A stretch of DNA of 32,000 bases from Candidatus Poseidoniaceae archaeon (GTDB lineage Archaea; Thermoplasmatota; Poseidoniia; Poseidoniales; Poseidoniaceae). The translations under genes were made by a program, and so were the position numbers. The number at the start of each line of letters is the position of its first letter. Positions within the stretch are counted from its first letter, which is position 1. The notes below the pieces were generated by a model. That model searched no databases. It was not told the origin of the DNA and saw only the letters and a program-made list of their open reading frames with translations. Below, piece after piece: positions 14,173 to 31,843 of the stretch. The stretch lies in NCBI GenBank assembly GCA_943789275.1, contig CALSTM010000002.1, positions 360,001-392,000 of the forward strand, written 5' to 3'.

Positions 14173-16527
14173 CTATGATTTATTCTCCACATGGAGATTA
14201 CGGCCACCGAGCGGTGCAAAAGCACGGCCGGACCCGTCGTAGAATTTGCCCATCCATTCCACAAAGTGGAGACGGGCAGCGTGAATCGTTGGGGAAAGAA
14301 TTCCCAGTGCGATTGCAAACACTTGAATGAAGAGGAACAAGACCAAGCAGAGCAGTCCAACAAGAATACCGGAGATTCCACCGCTTGTGAATGCGTCAAC
14401 CATTGGCTCAAAGCCCATAGTGATGGACACTTCTGCAATTTTAACGCCGGCAACACCGACTGCCATGATACGCAGATAAGAGAGTGTGTTGGCAAGCAAT
14501 CCAAATGTTTCGATTGGGCCCATGATGAGGCCGCCTGCCCATCCGAACTTCTCGAAGATAGCCAAACCGATGATGAGGCTGATTATGCCAACAATGAGCA
14601 GGACCGTCCATATTTGGAAGTCGAACAAATCATTGTAACCTGAAACCATGTTTCGGCACTGCATGAAACCGCCGATAAGGATGAGGAGCCAAGAGCCCTT
14701 TTCGAAGTATGCTGCTGCTGCACCGTGTGCCTTGTAGACGTTGATCAAGCCGAGCATGTATCCGATGAAGATGTGAATTGCACCAAGGTAGATTGAGAGG
14801 ATGACATATTCTTGCAATCCGTGCCCTGCAGATGCTCGGTGGAACGGCATGTGAAGGCCTCCAAGGTTGAGCAGGTCTGCAAGTGCCTTTGGAACGTGGA
14901 CGTTGTGATAGGTCCAGTCATAGAAGGCAAAGAAAGGTGAATCAGCGCCCATTTGCCCTGTTTCGTCCCAAACGAAACCAAAACCTTCGGCGAAAATGAT
15001 ACCCCAAATGACACACCATACGCCCATCCAACGAAGGATAGTAAGTCCTTTTTGTGCCATTGGGTCAACGGCAAATGCCTTACTGCCGAGCCATCCAGCG
15101 AGGAGAAGAAGAACAATTCCATATCCCCAATCTCCCAAAATCATTCCGTAAATGAATGGGAAGGTCATCATAATGAGCGTCGTTGGGTCAAACGTGCCGT
15201 ACTTCGGGCGTCCGACCAAATCAACCATCAGTTCGAACGGTTCAGAAGTTGAGCCGTTCGTGTACTGGATAGGTGGCTCGATGTCGTGGCCTCCGTCATC
15301 GTGAGCAGGAGCGTTACGAATACGCGTCAATGTAATGTCGAGTTCTGGGAGATTGATTTTCCCGTCACCGTCGAGGTCAACAGCCGAAACGAGTTTACCC
15401 ATTTCCCATGGAGGGAGATTTGCGATGTTTGCGTTCTTGAGCGCCGTTTGGAACTCATAGCAGTCAATAAGCCCGGAGTCATCCAAGTCTATCGCATTGA
15501 AAAATTGGAACACAGTCTGATTTGACTTGTTCAAATAGTTCGAGAGCATCATGAGTTCTTCGGGGTCCGAAGAGCCGACGTCTTCATGTTCACCGTGGTC
15601 GTGATGATGATGGCCACCTTCGTAGGCTTCAACGGTGACGTGAGAGGCAACCTTTGCGAGTTCAGCCTCGACCATAGATGCCTGGTCGGTTGGGACCCAT
15701 CCGTCAAGAGCAAATGCCTGGTTACTGACCGCAACCAATGTTGGTGCTGTAAAAACGGCAGCCTCACGAGTAAGGTATTCTTTGGCAGCGACCAGCTTCC
15801 GCCCGTTTCGAAGCGTCCATGCATCAAGTGCAGACTGTGTGTCCGTGATTTTCGATTCCAAGAGAGAAATTTCTGAGAGGAGTTTTTTCGACATCTCAGC
15901 AGGTGAGCCCTCTCCGGAAGGGATTTGAACTGGTTTCGAGCCCAACTCTGCCATGCAGATTTGAACTTCAGCGGAGTGTTCTGAACGGCATGCAACGGCG
16001 ACAAGTCCACCAGCAGCATGCAGTTCAATCTCGCTAAGAATGTCCGCAAAAACTTCCTTTGCCTTCGAAGCACGACGAGTTTCACCTACGAATACTTCGA
16101 GACCTTCGTATCCTGCCATCAATTCGAGAGGTATGTCCAAAGGAGCGAGACGATCCAAAACTTGGAATTGCTCTTCGGAGGATGAAATTTGGGCTTCAGC
16201 ATCACGGATGGTATCGATGTATTCGAGGGCTGTAGTAATTTTCTCCTCAAAACCAGCAATCATCTTAGCCACTTCCTTGTGAGGCATTGGCCCATCGGAG
16301 TTTACGGCCTGAACGGCCGAAGAAACTGCTTGCACCTTGACAAGTAGGCTGCTGATTGCGTTGGCTTCATCGGAACTCATCGAAGAACCGACGCCGATGC
16401 CGTCTTCAAATCGCCCATACTCTTCAATGTGGATGCACGAAAGGTCGGTGCAAAGGCGGAGAATTTCTTCGAGCTTCTCTACAGGAGCCGCTACTGTAAG
16501 ACGGGACATGTCAGAAGTAGCAAACAT
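14173..16527 (-). CDS. atpI: A-type ATP synthase subunit I (stator a-subunit) carrying a His-rich plus double EF-hand insertion
   Basis: 784 aa. The N-terminal cytoplasmic domain is followed by PFELMVDLVGRPKYGTFDPT and a multi-TM C-terminal domain with LSYLRIMAVGVAG (conserved Arg helix). The insert at aa ~304-417 contains GGHHHHDHGEHED, DLDDSGLIDCYE and DLDGDGKINLPE. Confidence 0.92.
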   Translation of the reverse strand: MFATSDMSRLTVAAPVEKLEEILRLCTDLSCIHIEEYGRFEDGIGVGSSMSSDEANAISSLLVKVQAVSSAVQAVNSDGPMPHKEVAKMIAGFEEKITTALEYIDTIRDAEAQISSSEEQFQVLDRLAPLDIPLELMAGYEGLEVFVGETRRASKAKEVFADILSEIELHAAGGLVAVACRSEHSAEVQICMAELGSKPVQIPSGEGSPAEMSKKLLSEISLLESKITDTQSALDAWTLRNGRKLVAAKEYLTREAAVFTAPTLVAVSNQAFALDGWVPTDQASMVEAELAKVASHVTVEAYEGGHHHHDHGEHEDVGSSDPEELMMLSNYLNKSNQTVFQFFNAIDLDDSGLIDCYEFQTALKNANIANLPPWEMGKLVSAVDLDGDGKINLPELDITLTRIRNAPAHDDGGHDIEPPIQYTNGSTSEPFELMVDLVGRPKYGTFDPTTLIMMTFPFIYGMILGDWGYGIVLLLLAGWLGSKAFAVDPMAQKGLTILRWMGVWCVIWGIIFAEGFGFVWDETGQMGADSPFFAFYDWTYHNVHVPKALADLLNLGGLHMPFHRASAGHGLQEYVILSIYLGAIHIFIGYMLGLINVYKAHGAAAAYFEKGSWLLILIGGFMQCRNMVSGYNDLFDFQIWTVLLIVGIISLIIGLAIFEKFGWAGGLIMGPIETFGLLANTLSYLRIMAVGVAGVKIAEVSITMGFEPMVDAFTSGGISGILVGLLCLVLFLFIQVFAIALGILSPTIHAARLHFVEWMGKFYDGSGRAFAPLGGRNLHVENKS

Positions 16528-17775: not shown

Positions 17776-18579
17776 TCAAGCGATACGTTCGACGGTCTCT
17801 GGAGTGATTCCTTCTTCGGGAGTCACACGGAACACGAGAATTTTGAGATTCTCTGGAGCGTTTCGGAATTTCGATACAATCATCGAGGTTTCAAAGTCCG
17901 TACCGATGGTTCGGACTTGGAACGAGAGAACCATATCAGCAATCGATGCGAGTTCTTGTTTGACCGTGGGGTCAAGACCGTTGGTTGAAACAGAGACAAG
18001 AAGCAATCCTCGATTCAACTGTGCATGCGCTTGCAGCATACGGACCATAGCGATAACTCGCGCTGGATCTTCACGTTGCAAGAAGAAATCGAGACTGTCA
18101 ATAACGGCTCTAAAGTAAGGTCCCAGAGCCATGATTTCATTGGTGACTTCGGTAAGATAGTCCTGCGTGTTGTCATCAACGAAACGTGTCTGAGCAAGCC
18201 GGCGGATATCGTCAAGACGGAACCCTTCCAAACGATATCGGCTGGCAAGAAGCTCTCGCTCAAGGACGGTCGAATTGTATTCTTCCCCAATGGTGCGGAC
18301 GTTGATGTCAAGCGGCCAGTCGTATTTTTGGAAGATACGAATGATTTCTTGTTGACCTTCATTGGTCGAGATGTAGATGGTGTTTTCTGCTTCTTCAGCA
18401 GGAGATGTAAACTGTTTAGCAAACAATTCGCTGCCAGAACCGGTATCGGTAAAGGCTACCATCATGAATCCACGCGGAACTCCTCCGTGCATTTCATTGT
18501 CGAACTTCGGGACACCAAAGGAGCCAACTTTACCGAAGAACTCTTCGTCTTCTGGGTCGAATTCAATTTTTCTTGCCAT
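17776..18579 (-). CDS. KaiC/RecA-fold paralog with a degenerate Walker A (predicted non-catalytic)
   Basis: FGVPKFDNEMHGGVPRGFMMVAFTDTGSGSELFAKQF aligns by eye to the KaiC-like gene at 19198..19995, but GSGKT is replaced by GSGSE. A Walker-B-like RAVIDSLDFF and the C-terminal ADMVLSF...SKFRN block are retained. Confidence 0.7.
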   Translation of the reverse strand: MARKIEFDPEDEEFFGKVGSFGVPKFDNEMHGGVPRGFMMVAFTDTGSGSELFAKQFTSPAEEAENTIYISTNEGQQEIIRIFQKYDWPLDINVRTIGEEYNSTVLERELLASRYRLEGFRLDDIRRLAQTRFVDDNTQDYLTEVTNEIMALGPYFRAVIDSLDFFLQREDPARVIAMVRMLQAHAQLNRGLLLVSVSTNGLDPTVKQELASIADMVLSFQVRTIGTDFETSMIVSKFRNAPENLKILVFRVTPEEGITPETVERIA

Positions 18580-18589
18580 AACAATAACC

Positions 18590-19201
18590 TCAGTTGATGA
18601 GTACTTGACCTCGGTCGATTAGATCTGTACAGTAAAGATCAAGATTCGCCAACACAAGCGGTGGAGTTTGGTCCGGTACATTGAGAATTACCGACAGAAC
18701 TTCTCTCTGTCTGAAGGTGTTAATGAAGGTATGAAGATATTCCGCAAGCATCCGGTCATCGTTGTAAATTGCGAGGGCATTGACGCTGTCCAAGAACACG
18801 AAATTGCGAGCAGAGGTGGTCATTCGAAGGATATACAAGGTTCGTAAAAGTACGGATTCAAGCATAATCGGACTGTCGACGAAGTGGATGTTGGTGTAGG
18901 CAACATCGGTACCTCCAAGAATACCGGAGGAGACTAAATCCACGAATTGGATGCGAGAAATATCCTCATCAGTTAGACCAATGGCTTTGAATTCTTCAAT
19001 TCGTTCAGCAGCGCCGACACTGGCGCAAATGTATACGCCACCCATCTCAAACATCTGCATCAAAGGAATAAGAGTACTCGCAGTGACGTTGAATGCGTTG
19101 GAATTGCCGCATCGGACTTGGATGGAACTGTTGAGGCTAACATCCGCTGCAAGTTGCTCAGCAATGCGGTCATCGAGTACGAGATTCGTGTACATTATCA
19201 T
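18590..19201 (-). CDS. Short RecA/KaiC-fold-like protein lacking a P-loop
   Basis: 203 aa. LDDRIAEQLAADVSLNSSIQVRCGNSNAFNVT sits where KaiC-like proteins have LD..L.GG...GS..L..G..GSGKT. A Walker-B-like NFVFLDSVNALAIY is present. Its start overlaps the upstream gene's stop by 4 bp (ATGA). Confidence 0.55.
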   Translation of the reverse strand: MIMYTNLVLDDRIAEQLAADVSLNSSIQVRCGNSNAFNVTASTLIPLMQMFEMGGVYICASVGAAERIEEFKAIGLTDEDISRIQFVDLVSSGILGGTDVAYTNIHFVDSPIMLESVLLRTLYILRMTTSARNFVFLDSVNALAIYNDDRMLAEYLHTFINTFRQREVLSVILNVPDQTPPLVLANLDLYCTDLIDRGQVLIN

Positions 19202-19995
19202 CCACCTACCTTGTTTGTTTTGTCATGTTGAGCACCCCATTTGAGCATAGGTGTCAGCATAACGCCGAGAGGCGTCAATTCAATAGCGTGCTTTGCACGG
19301 CTGTGAGAAGTACCTCGCATCTTCACGACTTGTAGGAACCTTAGAAGGTGGCCCATACGCTCGACGTCACCCATGACAATAATGCCGTCTGCAATCGCTT
19401 CTTCGACCCCAAAGGAAGACCAATGAGCGTTTTCAGTCGCTGAAGTGATTTCAGAGATAAGAATGGTCGTACAGCCCAAAGAAGCAAGCTTCTTCCCGAG
19501 CGTGAAGAGGAAGTCACGAATCAATTGTTCCGACTTAATCTTGTAACAAAGAGTGGTGACTGAATCGATAACCAGGCGAGTAGCACCAATTTCGTGAACG
19601 ATGTTAATGATGGCTTTAATCAAGGCGTGAACGTCATCCAAGTCGAACGATGCTTTATCCAGACCAAGCCATGAATACAGCACATCCATATCGAAAACGT
19701 TGATTTTTCCAGAGTCAACCATTTTCATATCAAAAAAGGCATACTGGCGAATATTCTCAAGCAACTTGATCGAAGGTTCGGTTGCAGTAAAGTGTGCACA
19801 CGATTCTGGGAACTTAGCGAGCGCACCCCTTACGAGGAACTCCATAGCCAATGTGGTCTTACCAGAACCGCACGTACCTGCAGCGAGAACTGTAGAACCG
19901 TGAGGGATTCCACCTCGAAGGATTTCGTCCAAGCCATGAATACCCGTAACGCAGCGGTCACGAGTGTAATTAGATGTTGACTGCATGGGATTCAA
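19198..19995 (-). CDS. Single-domain KaiC-like (RecA-superfamily) ATPase with intact motifs
   Basis: GIHGLDEILRGGIPHGSTVLAAGTCGSGKTTLAMEFLVRGA (Walker A at 19855-19878), Walker B RLVIDSVTTL, and LQVVKMRGTSHS (KaiC-family KMRG block). Confidence 0.85.
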   Translation of the reverse strand: MNPMQSTSNYTRDRCVTGIHGLDEILRGGIPHGSTVLAAGTCGSGKTTLAMEFLVRGALAKFPESCAHFTATEPSIKLLENIRQYAFFDMKMVDSGKINVFDMDVLYSWLGLDKASFDLDDVHALIKAIINIVHEIGATRLVIDSVTTLCYKIKSEQLIRDFLFTLGKKLASLGCTTILISEITSATENAHWSSFGVEEAIADGIIVMGDVERMGHLLRFLQVVKMRGTSHSRAKHAIELTPLGVMLTPMLKWGAQHDKTNKVGG

Positions 19996-20059: not shown

Positions 20060-21142
20060 TCATGCACTTGAGATTGACCCTGGAGTGGGGGAGGTCTGCA
20101 CAGCCCATGAGGCCTGAGTTCCGTTGAAGGTGGCCTCTAGAGATTGACCTAGAGAAGTGAAAAGGTCGCTTTGAGCCCCCCATTCCACAGTCATAACATC
20201 ATACGGCCGGGCTTGGTCGAGTTGCGTGTAACGAAGAGAAAGAACACCGTTACCATCATTAAGCAAATTAATCGACCCTACGCCAAGGAATGATTCTTGA
20301 GACAAGTCAAAGACTTGGGAGGCATTTCCACTGGATTGTGATGTTGCATCTCCTGTAAATAAGACGGTTGAATGTCCCGAGATAACCCCTTCCTGGAAAA
20401 GCAAGTTACTTGCACCGTTGGTCGAGGTGTGATTAAGAGACCAACCTCGCAAAGAGAGGGCGAAGTCATTCGGATTATAGATTTCCACCCATTCAGGGCC
20501 AAAGGAGGTTGGGCGGAGCATTACCTCACTCAAATACAGGTCGTTGTCTTTTTGACCACCTCGATGAACTTCAAGTATGACCCGCAATATTTCTCCGTTT
20601 TGGGAGAATTGGCGGTTGGCTGAAGAAGAGGCAGTCGCTGTAGAACGGTCGGTGCCTCCAGTGAACAACTTCACCCCAACACGTGAGGCGTTTTCAGACT
20701 CGATAACTGATATGGACAAATAGAGCGTGTATCCAACATCCAATCCAAGCCCAAGCGCCATGTTTTCTTCGGACACGTTCCGCAACGCTTCAATGCGTTG
20801 TTCATCCAGTATACCTTCACTGACAAGGCCGGTTTGAACACGTCCATTGTCAAGAGAGACGGCATCCAACAGGTGCCATTCAGAAGTGGAATTGTTGAAA
20901 TCCAGACCTGTGGAGCCCATCGGAACAAACCACCCACCGTCCGAAGTTAGACGATCCATTCCTTGTACTGCGGCACGGTCTATACGGTCAACATCAGGGT
21001 CATTCGAACCCATTTGGAGCTGTGCAAGAGATAAAAATGCGGTGAGAATCATGAGAAACAACGCAAACGCAGAAAGAAATTCAATGACGGCCGTGAGGGC
21101 ATTGTTGTCTCTTTCCAGAGAGCAAACCTCTACACCGCGCAT
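20060..21142 (-). CDS. Archaeal type-IV-pilin-like (class III signal peptide) protein with a C-terminal lamin-tail domain (LTD)
   Basis: The N-terminus MRGVEVCSLERDNNA|LTAVIEFLSAFALFLMILTAFLSL has a short charged leader followed by about 24 hydrophobic residues. The C-terminal LYLSEVMLRPTSFGPEWVEIYNPNDFALSLRGWSLNHTS...LLFQEGVISGHSTVLFTGD...LLNDGNGVLSL matches the LTD pattern (EfvElyNp...dLsGWsL...f.fp.g..l.pg). Confidence 0.7.
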   Translation of the reverse strand: MRGVEVCSLERDNNALTAVIEFLSAFALFLMILTAFLSLAQLQMGSNDPDVDRIDRAAVQGMDRLTSDGGWFVPMGSTGLDFNNSTSEWHLLDAVSLDNGRVQTGLVSEGILDEQRIEALRNVSEENMALGLGLDVGYTLYLSISVIESENASRVGVKLFTGGTDRSTATASSSANRQFSQNGEILRVILEVHRGGQKDNDLYLSEVMLRPTSFGPEWVEIYNPNDFALSLRGWSLNHTSTNGASNLLFQEGVISGHSTVLFTGDATSQSSGNASQVFDLSQESFLGVGSINLLNDGNGVLSLRYTQLDQARPYDVMTVEWGAQSDLFTSLGQSLEATFNGTQASWAVQTSPTPGSISSA

Positions 21143-21269
21143 GAACTGTCGTACCGTTCGGCGATTGAAGAGGTTGCCGCATGGAGTCTGTTCAAATCGT
21201 CGAATTATCGCATCAATGCCCCCTTCGGGGGCGATGAGTCTTTGAAGCCCCGCTGTGAGGCACCTGTCA

Positions 21270-24221
21270 ATGTCGCGCCGCGCTGTTCATGAATCTGGTC
21301 GCAAAAGCGGAAGCATCTGCTTTGTTCTCATCCTTCTCTTGGCATCATTGTCCGGAGTGATATCCCTTCCAGGCGTATCTGCGAGCGAAAGTGGTGACCT
21401 TGGACTGGTGGCTACCAATTCACCGGTTGAAGATTCATGGAGTTCATCTTGGGAGAACATCAGGTTCAATGCGACCATCACCAACGAGGGTTTGCAATCC
21501 ATCGCCAGCAGAGGCCTTTGGTGGCATGTATGTGAAGGGGAAATCGATGCGACCAATTGTAAATCAAATTACGATGACCGAGGAAGTTTTTCTCTCCCAA
21601 CAATATATCCAGGCACAACGTTGGATTTTGAATCCCCGAATGTGTGGAATCCGTCGGGTGATGAAGGGGTTTTTACCATCGTTTACGCGTTTACCCTCAC
21701 CGACCAAGACCCATCCGATGATGTCTTGATGTTTCGAATCAATGTGACGCAATCGTTTGTAGACCTGAGCGTTGATTCAACCTATGAACCAACCAGTACC
21801 TTACTCAATCTCGGTTACGACGGCAATCAAGCGATTTTGAATACCGGTACAAATTACGACATGAACGCTAAAGGAACCGTAACTGCCTGCGGCACATGTA
21901 ACTTCGTTGCCCAGATTGGATGGCAGCTGTGGTCCAGTGACGGACTCATCCTCATTTCTGAAGCATCGACCAGTGTTACGAATTTGCCCTCATGGGGCGG
22001 CATTTCTCCGTTCACACAAGCCATGCCTGCCTTCAGCCACAACGATCAAGGGAACTTCCTTCTAAAGTGGGGGCTGATTGAGAGTTCAGGAACGCCTTAC
22101 GGCGACCTTGTCCCCTCAAACGACCTCTCTGAAACCCTTATCGTTCTTGACGACACAATTGATATTCAAGCCACTTCGATGGCACCAAACCATGACCCAA
22201 CATCGGTGAACTATTTCTACGGAGAGAACATGGTTCGTTCAATCATAACAAACAACGGATATGTCACCGTCTCCTCGACGCTCGCCACCTTCCAAGTGTA
22301 CGACCAACTTGGCGAAATAGAAGATGAAGCGCAATGCCCAATCAATGATTTACATCCGGGTGATGAGCAGATTTGTTTGTTCAACATCACCCTCATCGGC
22401 TCTCTCAAAACACTCACAATCAACATACCCTCTGTCTTTGCCGAGGGCAGTGACTCCAAAGCAGGAGATAACGTTTTGACTGAAAATGTAGACCTTATTG
22501 CTGGTAATATCGACGCTTCAATCACTCAAAGCAACTCGCAAGGAATTTACACGACCGGTGATGACATCATCATGATTGCGCGTACCGGCGATACTGCTGC
22601 CGCTCCACTCAACTTTTCCTGGTTCAGAGCAGGGATCATCCCTCTTGGACACGGCCAAGTTCTGAACCTTTCCGGCTCAGTATTTGGTCTCGGCGACCAC
22701 AAGGTGACCCTACGGGTAACCGACGCATTTGGTGAATTAGAGTCCGTGCACAAAGAAATTACGCTGTTCAACTATGTTTCACTCGATAACGGGGATTTAT
22801 TCACTGGAGAAGCAGTCACCCGCTCCCTTTCGTATTTCGAACATGAATCAATTTTACCGGTACTGGGTACTCAATACGGTATCGGAGAAGGAAGAGAACC
22901 TCTCCTCTTGCTCTCGTTCAATGTACTGTCCAGTGCTGATAATTCCAATAACACGGGCATGGATCGTATGAACATACATCTGAACACTTCAAATCTCTTA
23001 CCGAGTAACATCCCGTTGGATTCTGTTGATGTACGATTCTTAACCTCGCTTGATGATAATATATGGACATTTATTGACGATTACTCGAAAAACATGGATA
23101 ACTCATTCGACATCACTCTGTATCAAAATGGAGTTGTCCTCATTATTGGCAATGCCCCACCTGCAAACATATCCAGTGGGGAACTTGAAAGAAGCCAACT
23201 CCAAGGCGGTAGTCTTGAATTGCAATGGTCGCCTGTGGGAGACATTGACAACCCCTATATTGGCTCCTGGAACATCTACAAACTTACCGTATCAAACAGT
23301 GCAGGCACCGTATTCCCAAATCCTTATCCAGATTTCAACCCCATAGTTTGGGGGCAACTCACTTCGACCACATTGGTTGCTTCAATCCCCCCAAACTCGA
23401 ATTCATGGATTGACCCTTCACCTCTGCCGACCGGAATTTGTGCATCCTACGCCATCATGCCTGCCGACAGAGAAGGTTCACCAGATTTCCTCCACATCGA
23501 AATTACACGCGACGATGATGGACAACCTGTAGCCTTCTGTGGTGATGCTGTGGCGCCGGATAAAGTGGTCACGAACATGCAAGTTACAACTTCCTTCACC
23601 AACAACTCTGATTGTTACAAAATCATGAACGATTGGTCCATGTGCTACGACGTCAACATGTCGTGGGTATGGCCAGATCATGAAACAACTGGAAATGTCT
23701 CATGGAACCTCTATCGTACCGACCAACGCCCCGATGAAATTGATATTTCCTTCCTCACACCTGTTGAAGAAGGACTTACCGGTATTGCTGGGGAGAAGGG
23801 ATACTACAACCAAAGCGGAATTAACGATGAAAACATTCGCCCATACCGCACATTTTACTACATTCTCGCTCCTGTCGATTCTGTAGGAAATCAGTTGAAT
23901 GAAGCTGACTATCCGACCAACTCGATACGAGTAACAATCGATGATCAATGGTGGGACTACAACCAGCACCTCATCCCTGAGCCTGAACCTGAACCTGAAC
24001 CACCGCTTGGCGTAGAATGGCTCGGAACACTCAAAGATTACACAGAAGTGGAAGAGTTCCAGTTGACGGGTGCTGTTGCATTGATGACGCTGGTGGTCAG
24101 CATGATTTTCTTACCGCTTATCATCAAGAAGAGAAAGCGATTGGCAAGGGTCATGAAGGCTCGTAAAAACCGAACAAATTCACAATTAACCGCGCAGGAT
24201 CTTGAAGACTTCTTTGACTGA
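21270..24221 (+). CDS. Large secreted surface protein (~984 aa) with a signal peptide, CARDB/Ig-like and FN3-like repeats, a PE-repeat stalk, a C-terminal TM anchor and a basic tail
   Basis: MSRRAVHESGRKSGSICFVLILLLASLSGVISLPGVSASE is a signal peptide. Repeated beta-rich segments include NATITNEGLQSIAS and SIITNNGYVTVSSTLATFQVYD. At least 12 NxS/T sequons. The C-terminus reads PEPEPEPEPP...LTGAVALMTLVVSMIFLPLIIKKRKRLARVMKARKNR. I prefer ATG 21270 to the track's GTG at 21255. Confidence 0.8.
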   Translation: MSRRAVHESGRKSGSICFVLILLLASLSGVISLPGVSASESGDLGLVATNSPVEDSWSSSWENIRFNATITNEGLQSIASRGLWWHVCEGEIDATNCKSNYDDRGSFSLPTIYPGTTLDFESPNVWNPSGDEGVFTIVYAFTLTDQDPSDDVLMFRINVTQSFVDLSVDSTYEPTSTLLNLGYDGNQAILNTGTNYDMNAKGTVTACGTCNFVAQIGWQLWSSDGLILISEASTSVTNLPSWGGISPFTQAMPAFSHNDQGNFLLKWGLIESSGTPYGDLVPSNDLSETLIVLDDTIDIQATSMAPNHDPTSVNYFYGENMVRSIITNNGYVTVSSTLATFQVYDQLGEIEDEAQCPINDLHPGDEQICLFNITLIGSLKTLTINIPSVFAEGSDSKAGDNVLTENVDLIAGNIDASITQSNSQGIYTTGDDIIMIARTGDTAAAPLNFSWFRAGIIPLGHGQVLNLSGSVFGLGDHKVTLRVTDAFGELESVHKEITLFNYVSLDNGDLFTGEAVTRSLSYFEHESILPVLGTQYGIGEGREPLLLLSFNVLSSADNSNNTGMDRMNIHLNTSNLLPSNIPLDSVDVRFLTSLDDNIWTFIDDYSKNMDNSFDITLYQNGVVLIIGNAPPANISSGELERSQLQGGSLELQWSPVGDIDNPYIGSWNIYKLTVSNSAGTVFPNPYPDFNPIVWGQLTSTTLVASIPPNSNSWIDPSPLPTGICASYAIMPADREGSPDFLHIEITRDDDGQPVAFCGDAVAPDKVVTNMQVTTSFTNNSDCYKIMNDWSMCYDVNMSWVWPDHETTGNVSWNLYRTDQRPDEIDISFLTPVEEGLTGIAGEKGYYNQSGINDENIRPYRTFYYILAPVDSVGNQLNEADYPTNSIRVTIDDQWWDYNQHLIPEPEPEPEPPLGVEWLGTLKDYTEVEEFQLTGAVALMTLVVSMIFLPLIIKKRKRLARVMKARKNRTNSQLTAQDLEDFFD
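23976..24005 (+). repeat. Hexanucleotide (CCTGAR)n tandem repeat encoding PEPEPEPEPP
   Basis: cct gag cct gaa cct gaa cct gaa cca ccg, read directly from the sequence. It lies inside the surface-protein CDS just before the TM anchor. Confidence 0.85.
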
Positions 24222-24227
24222 AGAATG

Positions 24228-24314
24228 TGGCGCGGCAGGGGAGATTCGAACTCCCGAGGTGAGACACCACTGGATTAGCAATCCAGCGCAATGGCCAGGC
24301 TATGCGACTGCCGC
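24228..24314 (-). tRNA. tRNA-Ser (anticodon GCU), type II with a long variable arm and encoded 3' CCA
   Basis: The reverse complement folds by hand. Acceptor stem GCGGCAG/CUGCCGC. Anticodon stem CUGGA/UCCAG with loop UUGCUAA. Variable arm UGGUGUCUCACCUC. T arm GGGAG-UUCGAAU-CUCCC. Discriminator G followed by CCA. Confidence 0.93.
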
Positions 24315-30598: not shown

Positions 30599-31843
30599 TC
30601 AGTCAGAATCACTGTTCGATAGCGATTCTAAATCAGGGGCGTTCGGAAGACTGTTAACCGTTGCCAAGTACTCCTCGAGGGAGACTGCTCCGTCACCGTC
30701 TTTGTCAGCCTTCTTGTGAATAACTTTGGCCTCTTCTACCGACATTCCGGTAGCAGTTGCGAGTTCTTCAACTGAAAGAAGAGCACTGCCATCAATATCT
30801 GCGGAATCAAAACTGTTCTTGAGTGAATCAAGTTGGGATTCTAGTTCACGCTTAAGGCGTTCTCTTTCAGCTTCCGAGGCGACCTCGAAGGAACAAACTT
30901 GCATAATCGGATCGCCGGCAGTCAACTCTGCAGAGAATTCTGTTAATTCTCCACCGTTGCTCACCATGATTTGGAACTTGGTTGGGTCTTTGGAACGTCG
31001 CTTCTTGTGCTTCTTGTAATAGTGGACATAGACGTGATATTGGCCACCAGGTGCTGTACCTTCCGGCCAAAACACGTTCTCAACAGGCTTACGAGTTTCT
31101 GCTCGGACGTTGGCATCAACATCCAATTCACCACCGCAGGCTGAGATTTTGTTTCCACCGTGAATACGCTCACCGGAAGGACATACAATGTGCAAATCAA
31201 GGTCATTGTAATTGTTCCACATAAGTGAAACCTGAACATCGGAAGATTTCGCACCTTCTCGCTCAAGTCGTGCTTGTAATTCCTTGATTGCCTTTGAGTT
31301 GGCGTTGTTCGATGCCACTTGCTCTTGTTGAGCATTTGCAATCTCCGCGAGGCGAGCCTCTTCGGCTGCCAAGAGATCTTCTTGCCGTTGTAACTCACGT
31401 TCTGCAGCAAGACGAGCCTCTTCTTGTTCTCTACGACGAGCTTCATCCTCTTCGTCACGAACTTTTTGAGCCGCTTCGTTTGCGAGGCGTGCCTCTTCCA
31501 AGGCTGCATTTCGAGCGTCTTCAGCGATTTGCTTGCGTTCTGCTTCTTGTTGGGCACGTGTCTGATTAAGTTGTTCTCGTGCTTGGCGTTCTGCATCTTC
31601 AAGAGCCAATCGACTTGATATGGTTTCTTGACGTCGACGACGGTTTTCAACGATGGCCAGTTTCCGATCAATCTCTTTCTTAGCGTTCCCAAAACCTGGA
31701 GCCTTGGTACCGTAACGTAGGCCTTCTGGATTCATACCTTGACGCACTGAAACAGTGATGTCTTTTCGAGTATAAATGTACCACAGACCGTAACAGAAAC
31801 CTCCACCTAGAGCGAAGGAAGCCACCAGATATGTTATCTCCAT
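30599..31843 (-). CDS. Membrane-anchored coiled-coil protein with a DLDLH/LDVD beta-type domain and a C-terminal EF-hand pair
   Basis: N-terminal TM helix MEITYLVASFALGGGFCYGLWYIY. An E/R/A/Q-rich helix covers aa ~60-200 with three EEARLA repeats. Then VQVSLMWNNYNDLDLHIVCPSGERIHGGNKISACGGELDVDANV...PVENVFWPEG..GGQYHVYVHYY. EF-hand loops DIDGSALLSVEE and DKDGDGAVSLEE follow. Confidence 0.75.
   Translation of the reverse strand: MEITYLVASFALGGGFCYGLWYIYTRKDITVSVRQGMNPEGLRYGTKAPGFGNAKKEIDRKLAIVENRRRRQETISSRLALEDAERQAREQLNQTRAQQEAERKQIAEDARNAALEEARLANEAAQKVRDEEDEARRREQEEARLAAERELQRQEDLLAAEEARLAEIANAQQEQVASNNANSKAIKELQARLEREGAKSSDVQVSLMWNNYNDLDLHIVCPSGERIHGGNKISACGGELDVDANVRAETRKPVENVFWPEGTAPGGQYHVYVHYYKKHKKRRSKDPTKFQIMVSNGGELTEFSAELTAGDPIMQVCSFEVASEAERERLKRELESQLDSLKNSFDSADIDGSALLSVEELATATGMSVEEAKVIHKKADKDGDGAVSLEEYLATVNSLPNAPDLESLSNSDSD

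Follow-up and report, generated by a model that had tools for sequence, protein, structure and literature searches.

Three consecutive genes on the minus strand of a 32,000-nt stretch of archaeal DNA (the window, i.e. the whole stretch that was analyzed) encode KaiC-like proteins, here termed P1, P2 and P3. The window derives from Marine Group II (MGII; Poseidoniales), with near-identical loci in metagenome-assembled genomes of Candidatus Poseidoniaceae. In minus-strand order, the locus comprises a gene for a protein with a lamin-tail domain (the LTD protein; 21142-20060), P1, P2, P3, a UbiE-type methyltransferase gene and ATP synthase genes. The three open reading frames (ORFs), at 19198-19995 (P1), 18590-19201 (P2, 203 aa) and 17776-18579 (P3, 267 aa), had been singled out in an earlier reading of the sequence (the original prediction) as a tandem set of KaiC/RecA-fold paralogs, namely an intact ATPase and two copies with a degenerate P-loop. 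All three are present as described, translation placed every motif quoted for them where it had been reported, and Pfam, hhalign and an AlphaFold2 (AF2)/Foldseek analysis of P2 upheld the assignment. One detail needs correction: the probable start codon of P1 is the ATG at 19986 (MQSTS...) and not the TTG at 19995 from which it had been read, because orthologue alignments open at residue 3 or 4.

The genes are packed tightly. The stop codon of P1 and the start codon of P2 overlap as ATGA (19198-19201, minus strand; junction sequence GGTGGATGATAATG), with a Shine-Dalgarno-like GGTGG site within the end of P1, while P2 and P3 are parted by a 10-nt spacer (18580-18589, minus strand; GGTTATTGTT), with a Shine-Dalgarno-like GAGGT site lying across the P2 stop codon; both junctions read as originally given. 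This spacing is a general property of the family. Across 143 P1-P2 junctions from deeply diverged loci, spacers range from -13 to +4 nt in nearly all cases, and P2-P3 spacers fall between -11 and +14 nt in 125 of 126 junctions. The retention of tight, often overlapping junctions across very deep divergence fits co-translation and a stoichiometric complex, in line with the suggestion of co-translation made from the window's spacing.

Motifs and predicted folds of the three proteins

P1 exceeds the gathering cut-off of Pfam KaiC (PF06745; 26.6 bits) by a wide margin (175.4 bits, E=1.5e-51), and its best PDB matches are the CI domains of cyanobacterial KaiC (E=3e-46), followed by PH0186 and PH0284. 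Its Walker A motif GTCGSGKT (19855-19878, minus strand; aa 40-47) is accompanied by LVIDS (aa 141-145) and KMRGT (aa 225-229). In a motif survey of non-identical sequences (118 for P1, 140 for P2 and 102 for P3), GxxGxGKT, the catalytic glutamate E73 (TE), the Walker-B aspartate D144 and K225 were invariant in all 118 members of the P1 family, and R227 was found in 116. With this full set of catalytic motifs, P1 is predicted to be a catalytically competent, single-domain KaiC-like ATPase of the CI type. At the expected CII phospho-site, located by our own mapping of the KaiC alignment, P1 carries GVEEAIADG, i.e. EE and no Ser or Thr; canonical KaiC autophosphorylation is therefore unlikely.

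P3 likewise scores above the Pfam KaiC cut-off (63.1 bits, E=3e-17) and matches DUF7125 as well. The original prediction had aligned the three proteins to each other by eye. For P1 and P3 this alignment stands, both in direct comparison (BLASTP E=7e-6) and between family profiles (hhalign probability 98.6%, E=6.6e-16, 222 columns); for P2 it is statistically unsupported (see below). In place of a functional P-loop, P3 has TDTGSGSE (18427-18450, minus strand; aa 44-51). Among 102 P3 sequences, the position of the Walker-A lysine is occupied by Ser (39), Ala (29), Thr (14), Leu (12), Met (3), Val (3) or Lys (1), and that of the Walker-A threonine is always acidic (Glu in 95, Asp in 7), with both glycines of the motif retained and the following AKQ invariant. 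The remainder of the active site has been kept, as had been noted for the Walker-B motif (VIDSLDFF, aa 159-166) and the C-terminal blocks: T72, the catalytic glutamate E74, the Walker-B aspartate D161 and K237 occur in 102/102 sequences, and R239 in 100/102. The latter two belong to SKFRN (17860-17874, minus strand), which in the alignment with KaiC CI is the equivalent of the trans-acting finger residues K224/R226 of KaiC and of KMRG in P1. By its sequence, P3 is a clear KaiC-family paralog of P1 without a working P-loop, i.e. a predicted pseudo-ATPase. An invariant Lys/Arg finger combined with a freely varying P-loop lysine position and an acidic residue at the threonine position is the pattern expected of a non-catalytic ring neighbor that completes the site of another subunit in trans.

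P2 differs from the other two in this respect. Pairwise BLASTP found nothing significant against P1 (E=45) or P3 (E=3.2), its Pfam KaiC score (13 bits, E=0.065) lies below the 26.6-bit cut-off, and comparison of family profiles by hhalign gave a weak match to P1 (E=6e-4, 28% probability) and no significant match to P3. An AF2 model of P2, built on the alignment of its relatives, reached a pLDDT of 91.9 and a pTM of 0.89 and contains the alpha/beta core topology of RecA/KaiC. Searched against the PDB with Foldseek, the model matched best ArlH/FlaH (4yds, also 4wia), PH0284 (2dr3) and KaiC, at a probability of 1.00, E values down to 4e-7 and TM values of 0.6-0.7. Since the model matches ArlH, PH0284 and KaiC, and 36 of 45 P2-family members match Pfam KaiC (E<=0.01), we assign P2 a predicted KaiC/RecA fold. 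The sequence CGNSNAFNVT (aa 31-40) sits at the beta1-loop-alpha1 segment of the model, where the P-loop would be; a loop of two residues is present at this place. The C-terminal truncation that had been noted is real: the protein ends directly after the CTDL strand that precedes the finger hairpin, and the equivalent of KMRG is gone.

An exhaustive search for relatives of P2 yielded 264 clusters when grouped at 50% identity. Family members also match DUF7504 (28/45, best E 6e-14) and DUF7090 (28/45), pointing at the sequence level to a relationship of P2 with these two Pfam families; the P2 of the window itself has no match to DUF7504, DUF7090, DUF7125 or DUF835 at E<=1 (DUF7504 cut-off, 27 bits). 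Six residues (F86, D88, P111, L114, D138 and N147) are invariant in 140/140 P2 sequences. Two very high-scoring "relatives" (P0122 and P0158, with 11-38 matched stretches) were discarded as spurious, being translations of tandem repeats (SLAIAFSREKRLLQFY) that swell the match list, and three others (P0157, P0192 and P0217) lie on contigs of 1-2 kb and carry no information on gene context.

Conservation of the cassette and its association with pilins

A scan for P2 in one genome per GTDB species returned 269 stretches, the best 80 of which, all from Poseidoniaceae, were used to assess synteny. P1, P2 and P3 follow each other in the same order in 80/80 of these loci. P1 is preceded by the LTD gene in 77 of them, the other three ending at contig edges. 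The block LTD-P1-P2-P3, along with the divergent large protein described below, also occurs in Thalassarchaeaceae (MGIIb) within a different neighborhood; co-occurrence of the trio with the upstream pilin-like gene, to which the original prediction had drawn attention, is thus a feature of relatives as well. Outside MGII, P2 relatives at ~30% identity reside in P1-P2-P3 trios (L084 and L090) or in P1-P2 pairs, the latter on contigs with proteins that carry the NCBI name Methanomassiliicoccales. When non-marine P2 sequences were used as seeds, a metagenome scan added 80 further loci from soil, sediment and groundwater. In these environmental loci, P1 is adjacent to and before P2 wherever upstream sequence exists. 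Among 65 non-marine loci with room downstream of P2 (including three look-up loci outside MGII), 38 are trios and 27 are pairs. The fixed three-gene arrangement originally proposed therefore holds for all 80 Poseidoniaceae loci and is not general, the P1-P2 pair being a second variant in ~40% of the non-marine loci. The cassette is best read as an operon conserved throughout Poseidoniales, to which related cassettes of other Thermoplasmatota can be added.

Ratios of nonsynonymous to synonymous substitution rates (dN/dS; Nei-Gojobori, window vs. Poseidoniaceae orthologs, pairs with unsaturated dS) were 0.008 for P1, 0.008 for P2 and 0.018 for P3, compared to 0.046 and 0.016 for the LTD protein and the methyltransferase, respectively. 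Synonymous sites are saturated in most ortholog pairs, with the proteins still 66-100% identical. Ortholog alignments of P2 and P3 from ~80 Poseidoniaceae species contain no stop codons, and a stop was seen in 1 of 78 P1 alignments. Given these dN/dS values (0.008-0.018) and the intact reading frames, P1, P2 and P3 are under very strong purifying selection and none of them is a pseudogene; the degenerate copies, as the original prediction implied, are not decaying.

Two local departures from the standard layout were observed. In one Poseidoniaceae subgroup (L064-L069, L073, L075 and L077), the methyltransferase gene is inverted, and an insert of ~0.8-4 kb parts P3 from it, ahead of the ATP synthase operon. 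In a long-read "pilon" lagoon contig (L083, 5589-6991), P1 and P2 are broken into several short ORFs and P3 is intact; these splits are most likely assembly indels and not real pseudogenes.

Outside MGII, the cassette is accompanied by canonical pilin genes. Where an environmental locus extends 700 nt or more past the cassette, as 62 do, a Pilin_N-type gene usually (57/62) begins on the same strand within 1.5 kb downstream of the last KaiC-like gene. A pilin ORF was defined by a canonical archaeal class III signal (...E.AVSPVIATILMVAITVVLAAVLYVMV) and Pfam Pilin_N; the strict FlaFind pattern, without Pro, detected none (0/62), and the count of 57/62 was obtained with a pattern corrected for AVSPVIA-type signals.

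In MGII, the corresponding gene would be that of the LTD protein (20060-21142, minus strand), a membrane protein of 360 aa and the first gene of the conserved block (Pfam LTD, E=4e-11). Its N-terminus resembles a class III, i.e. prepilin-type, signal (...NNA/LTAVIEFLSAFALFLMILTAFLSL), the only such signal in the window. The LTD orthologs parsed all have G or A at position -1, after which come LTAVIEFLSAF or VVAVVEFLSAF and a helix of hydrophobic residues. AF2 models the protein as an N-terminal helix of 32 residues (aa 13-44), then an alpha/beta domain and the LTD beta-sandwich. From its N-terminal sequence it is plausible that the LTD protein is a type IV pilin. In MGIIb, the gene directly after P3 (L081, 7825-8841, minus strand) encodes a polytopic protein of 338 aa with a GGADAK motif and a match to Arc_PepC_II just below the cut-off (E=8.5e-6), and is probably an A24 prepilin peptidase judging from these features.

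Another conserved neighbor of the marine cassette is a divergently transcribed gene (21255-24221, plus strand) for a secreted, C-terminally anchored protein of 988 aa, which has an N-terminal signal-like region, a C-terminal transmembrane helix, a basic tail and no Pfam domain. It lies upstream of the LTD gene on the opposite strand in every Poseidoniaceae locus whose flank is long enough (36-91% identity), as it does in MGIIb (27% identity), and is possibly a functional partner of the cassette. Ahead of the trios of L090 and L091 there are likewise large, divergently transcribed proteins (~1435-1528 aa). In non-marine cassettes (L088-L170), the only other recurrent neighbor is an OMP-decarboxylase/RraA-like fusion (~430 aa) on the opposite strand upstream of P1, which made up 6 of 104 neighbor ORFs scanned.

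A proposed ATPase/pseudo-ATPase module and competing explanations

We propose, with a probability of roughly 0.55, that the cassette encodes a translationally coupled ATPase/pseudo-ATPase module of three single-domain KaiC-like proteins that is tied to pilin-like surface proteins. From the conservation patterns above we infer a physical complex, its ring geometry, finger donation and a regulatory output. By analogy with KaiC, PH0284 and ArlH, P1 would form rings, in which it would be the sole subunit to hydrolyze nucleotide. Through translational coupling, P2 and P3 would be made in a fixed ratio with P1, and most likely bind it. As a ring neighbor, P3 may complete the active site of P1 in trans through its Lys/Arg finger. 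P2 lacks both P-loop and finger, and its DUF7504-like relatives are fused to TPR or other interaction domains; a role as scaffold or adaptor, either inside the ring or stacked on it, is for these reasons the more likely one. P2 may be an adaptor or stacked partner instead of a ring subunit. As a whole, the complex could be a nucleotide-dependent switch that acts on the pilin-like membrane protein or takes its input from it; this protein would be the LTD protein in MGII and, in other lineages, a canonical Pilin_N pilin. In the manner of ArlH or CirA, the module would then regulate a surface structure based on pilins or signaling that depends on them.

A bolder version of this proposal can be offered only tentatively, and we doubt that it applies in full. 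Here, the three proteins would form an obligate hetero-oligomeric KaiC-like machine, consisting of a catalytic subunit, a finger-donating pseudo-ATPase and a scaffold, that serves stand-alone type IV pilin-like membrane proteins in a Thermoplasmatota-wide, so far unrecognized system of pilin sensing or handling, at work without neighboring PilB/PilC machinery in the archaea that dominate the plankton of the surface ocean. If true, this would be a prokaryotic counterpart of the Elp456 or Rad51-paralog complexes.

A number of observations weigh against the proposed module. P3 is missing from ~40% of the non-marine loci (27/65) and P2 has no finger hairpin, so that a mixed ring of 1:1:1 composition cannot be a strict requirement. 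A Rosetta-stone search of longer proteins carrying a P2-like domain found no natural P1-P2 fusion; these proteins instead join DUF7504 to a TPR, SNAP or unknown domain at the N-terminus. A Pfam census of the environmental neighbors revealed no recurrent PilB/ArlI-type ATPase (T2SSE), TadC platform or A24 peptidase; together with the pilin in 57/62 loci, this leaves the KaiC-like pair or trio plus a stand-alone pilin as the conserved unit. The pilin character of the LTD protein has its own difficulties: just 24 of the 65 orthologs parsed have a residue at -2 that agrees with the FlaFind rule, the protein has no Pfam Pilin_N match, and Foldseek with its model finds lamin Ig folds only and no pilin head. 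Finally, the pilin-like gene is located upstream of the cassette in MGII and downstream elsewhere.

Some of these points would suit a different explanation, in which P2 and P3 would be pseudo-enzyme adaptors outside any complex with P1 and each KaiC-fold protein would have a partner of its own, such as an ArlI/PilB-type ATPase or a transcription factor, the operon merely co-regulating them. ArlH itself works through binding to ArlI (PMC8978795), the fusions of DUF7504 domains to TPR and other domains are typical of free-standing interaction modules, and neither the fingerless P2 nor a P3 dispensable in 27 of 65 loci would be out of place. We nevertheless consider independent adaptors less likely, in view of the universal adjacency of P1 and P2 (overlapping or 1-4 nt apart even at ~30% P2 identity), the lack of a secretion ATPase as a recurrent neighbor and the invariant Lys/Arg finger of P3 next to a free P-loop lysine position, which is hard to explain without a neighboring active site.

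Much less probable is a recombination-mediator set of RadA paralogs (aRadC or Rad55-Rad57-like) acting in DNA repair. Rad51-paralog complexes do mix active and degenerate subunits, and the RadA paralog SSO2452 (2w0m) is matched by both P1 (E=1.4e-16) and P3 (E=3.7e-7), yet the KaiC scores of the cassette proteins are far above those for RadA, RadB and RecA (NCBIfam RadB, 19.5 bits vs. a cut-off of 172; RadA, 17.9 vs. 259). The database names "RAD55 family ATPase" and "KaiC/GvpD/RAD55" given to P3 orthologs stem from the generic COG0467 label, and the conserved neighbors are pilin or pilin-like genes and the surface protein, with no repair genes nearby.

A KaiC-type timing oscillator, with P1 as the clock ATPase and P2 and P3 replacing KaiB and KaiA or the CII ring, seems still more far-fetched. 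MGII archaea are photoheterotrophs under strong diel forcing, and P1 finds its best matches in cyanobacterial KaiC. Against a clock speak the single-domain build of all three proteins, the likeness of P1 to the non-phosphorylated CI, with EE at the CII phospho-site positions, the lack of a KaiB-like gene in the cassette and the occurrence of the cassette in soil, sediment and subsurface archaea. That P2 and P3 are functionless, decaying duplicates of P1 is refuted, their lost P-loop residues notwithstanding, by dN/dS values of 0.008 and 0.018, by intact frames in ~80 species, by the breadth of the P2 family (264 clusters at 50% identity) and by many invariant positions. A reading as a defense system was rejected as well, PADLOC giving only a weak mad8 match for P1.

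Relation to known systems and other features of the window

Among characterized proteins, the proposed module has features in common with ArlH (FlaH), which is a single RecA/KaiC-fold domain tied to a type IV filament system, acts by nucleotide-dependent protein binding and not as a motor, and is the top match of the P2 model. The cassette proteins are nonetheless distinct from ArlH: NCBIfam ArlH scores are 34.4 bits for P1 and 59.8 bits for P3, against a cut-off of 215, and P2 has no match. No arlI, arlJ or archaellin gene is located next to the cassette, whose neighbors are the LTD, methyltransferase and ATP synthase genes, and instead of one protein there are three paralogs, two of them predicted to lack canonical ATP binding. 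With cyanobacterial KaiC, P1 aligns end to end over the CI domain, and the alignment takes in both Walker motifs, the catalytic Glu and the Lys/Arg finger. Circadian KaiC differs in comprising CI and CII (~500 aa), compared to single-domain proteins of 203-267 aa in the cassette; against the KaiC equivalog models of NCBIfam they reach 140 and 110 bits, with cut-offs of 408 and 546, and a scan of the window found no KaiA or kaiB-like gene beside the cassette.

The P-loop-less KaiC-like domains of Pfam DUF7504, DUF7090, DUF7125 and DUF835, some of which are matched by P2 relatives and by P3, are not annotated with a function, nor has an operon context been described for them. A further analogy, and no more than that, is to the Elp4/5/6 and Rad51-paralog complexes, which join RecA-fold paralogs with degenerate sites into hetero-oligomers; here, three RecA-fold paralogs with lost or partial nucleotide sites would make up the single assembly that we propose. 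Faint Pfam matches to Elong_Iki1 (in 6/45 P2 relatives) and to PAXNEB were seen; the KaiC scores of the cassette proteins are, however, much higher.

Expansions of KaiC-like proteins, inactivated KaiC homologs and their association with type IV pili were already known in archaea. Makarova, Galperin and Koonin (mBio, 2017) reportedly described archaeal KaiC-like ATPases as "signal transduction hubs", some homologs having inactivated ATPase domains. Archaeal KaiC arCOGs, which are expanded single-domain paralogs, are strongly associated with type IV pilus loci, often lying beside pilus genes, and have been predicted to be regulators, according to the portion of the survey available here (PMC4858521). 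That portion does not cover Poseidoniales and does not describe a fixed P1-P2(-P3)-pilin cassette with the present motif states (PMC4858521). In Haloferax volcanii, the single-domain KaiC-like protein CirA acts in a membrane-pilin pathway that controls motility (PMC10983859); unlike the cassette proteins, it has an intact Walker A motif and is encoded by a lone gene within the arl cluster with no degenerate partners (PMC3941300, PMC10983859). Haloferax cirA-D were also considered as a precedent for a KaiC operon and set aside, the genes being dispersed and not in an operon. The literature searched, which did not include the 2017 mBio article, yielded no description of the cassette, its motif decay, its coupling to pilins or its universality in Poseidoniales, in agreement with the original prediction that the arrangement was not a described one. 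KaiC is not mentioned in the MGII genomics literature searched, and the metatranscriptome article searched contained no mention of KaiC, lamin, pilin or RAD55.

The cassette occurs in every Poseidoniaceae genome examined and is constrained like core metabolism (dN/dS ~0.01); universality and constraint together argue that it is important to the cell. The Poseidoniales, as yet uncultured, rank with the most abundant archaea of surface waters in the ocean, and their surface and adhesion biology is inferred almost wholly from genomes. The near-universal adjacency to pilins in relatives links KaiC-like signaling to type IV pilins well outside the haloarchaea, where genetic study of the KaiC-pilin link has only recently begun. 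The cassette is also a concrete, testable case of archaeal KaiC-like hubs that use dead paralogs, and, if the complex is real, would be a simple prokaryotic system in which to study hetero-oligomers built from RecA-fold pseudo-ATPases.

The remaining genes of the window include an A-type ATP synthase operon, heme A/O synthase genes and PurP. A tRNA-Ser(GCT) gene (24228-24314, minus strand) lies between the gene for the 988-aa surface protein and the heme O/A synthase genes (UbiA and COX15). Subunit I of the A-type ATP synthase (14173-16527, minus strand) contains an internal EF-hand pair (Pfam EF-hand_7/1/6, ~aa 320-400) that adjoins a His-rich run, HHHHDHGEHED, an unusual insertion for a stator subunit of a rotary ATPase; in more distant Poseidoniaceae loci, only the part from about residue 417 onward aligns well. 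A second EF-hand protein of 414 aa is encoded in the window at 30599-31843 (minus strand), and a gyrase A homolog in an MGIIb locus (L081, 1-891) gave a weak match to EF-hand_5. Calcium-binding motifs seem to be recurrent in unexpected MGII proteins.

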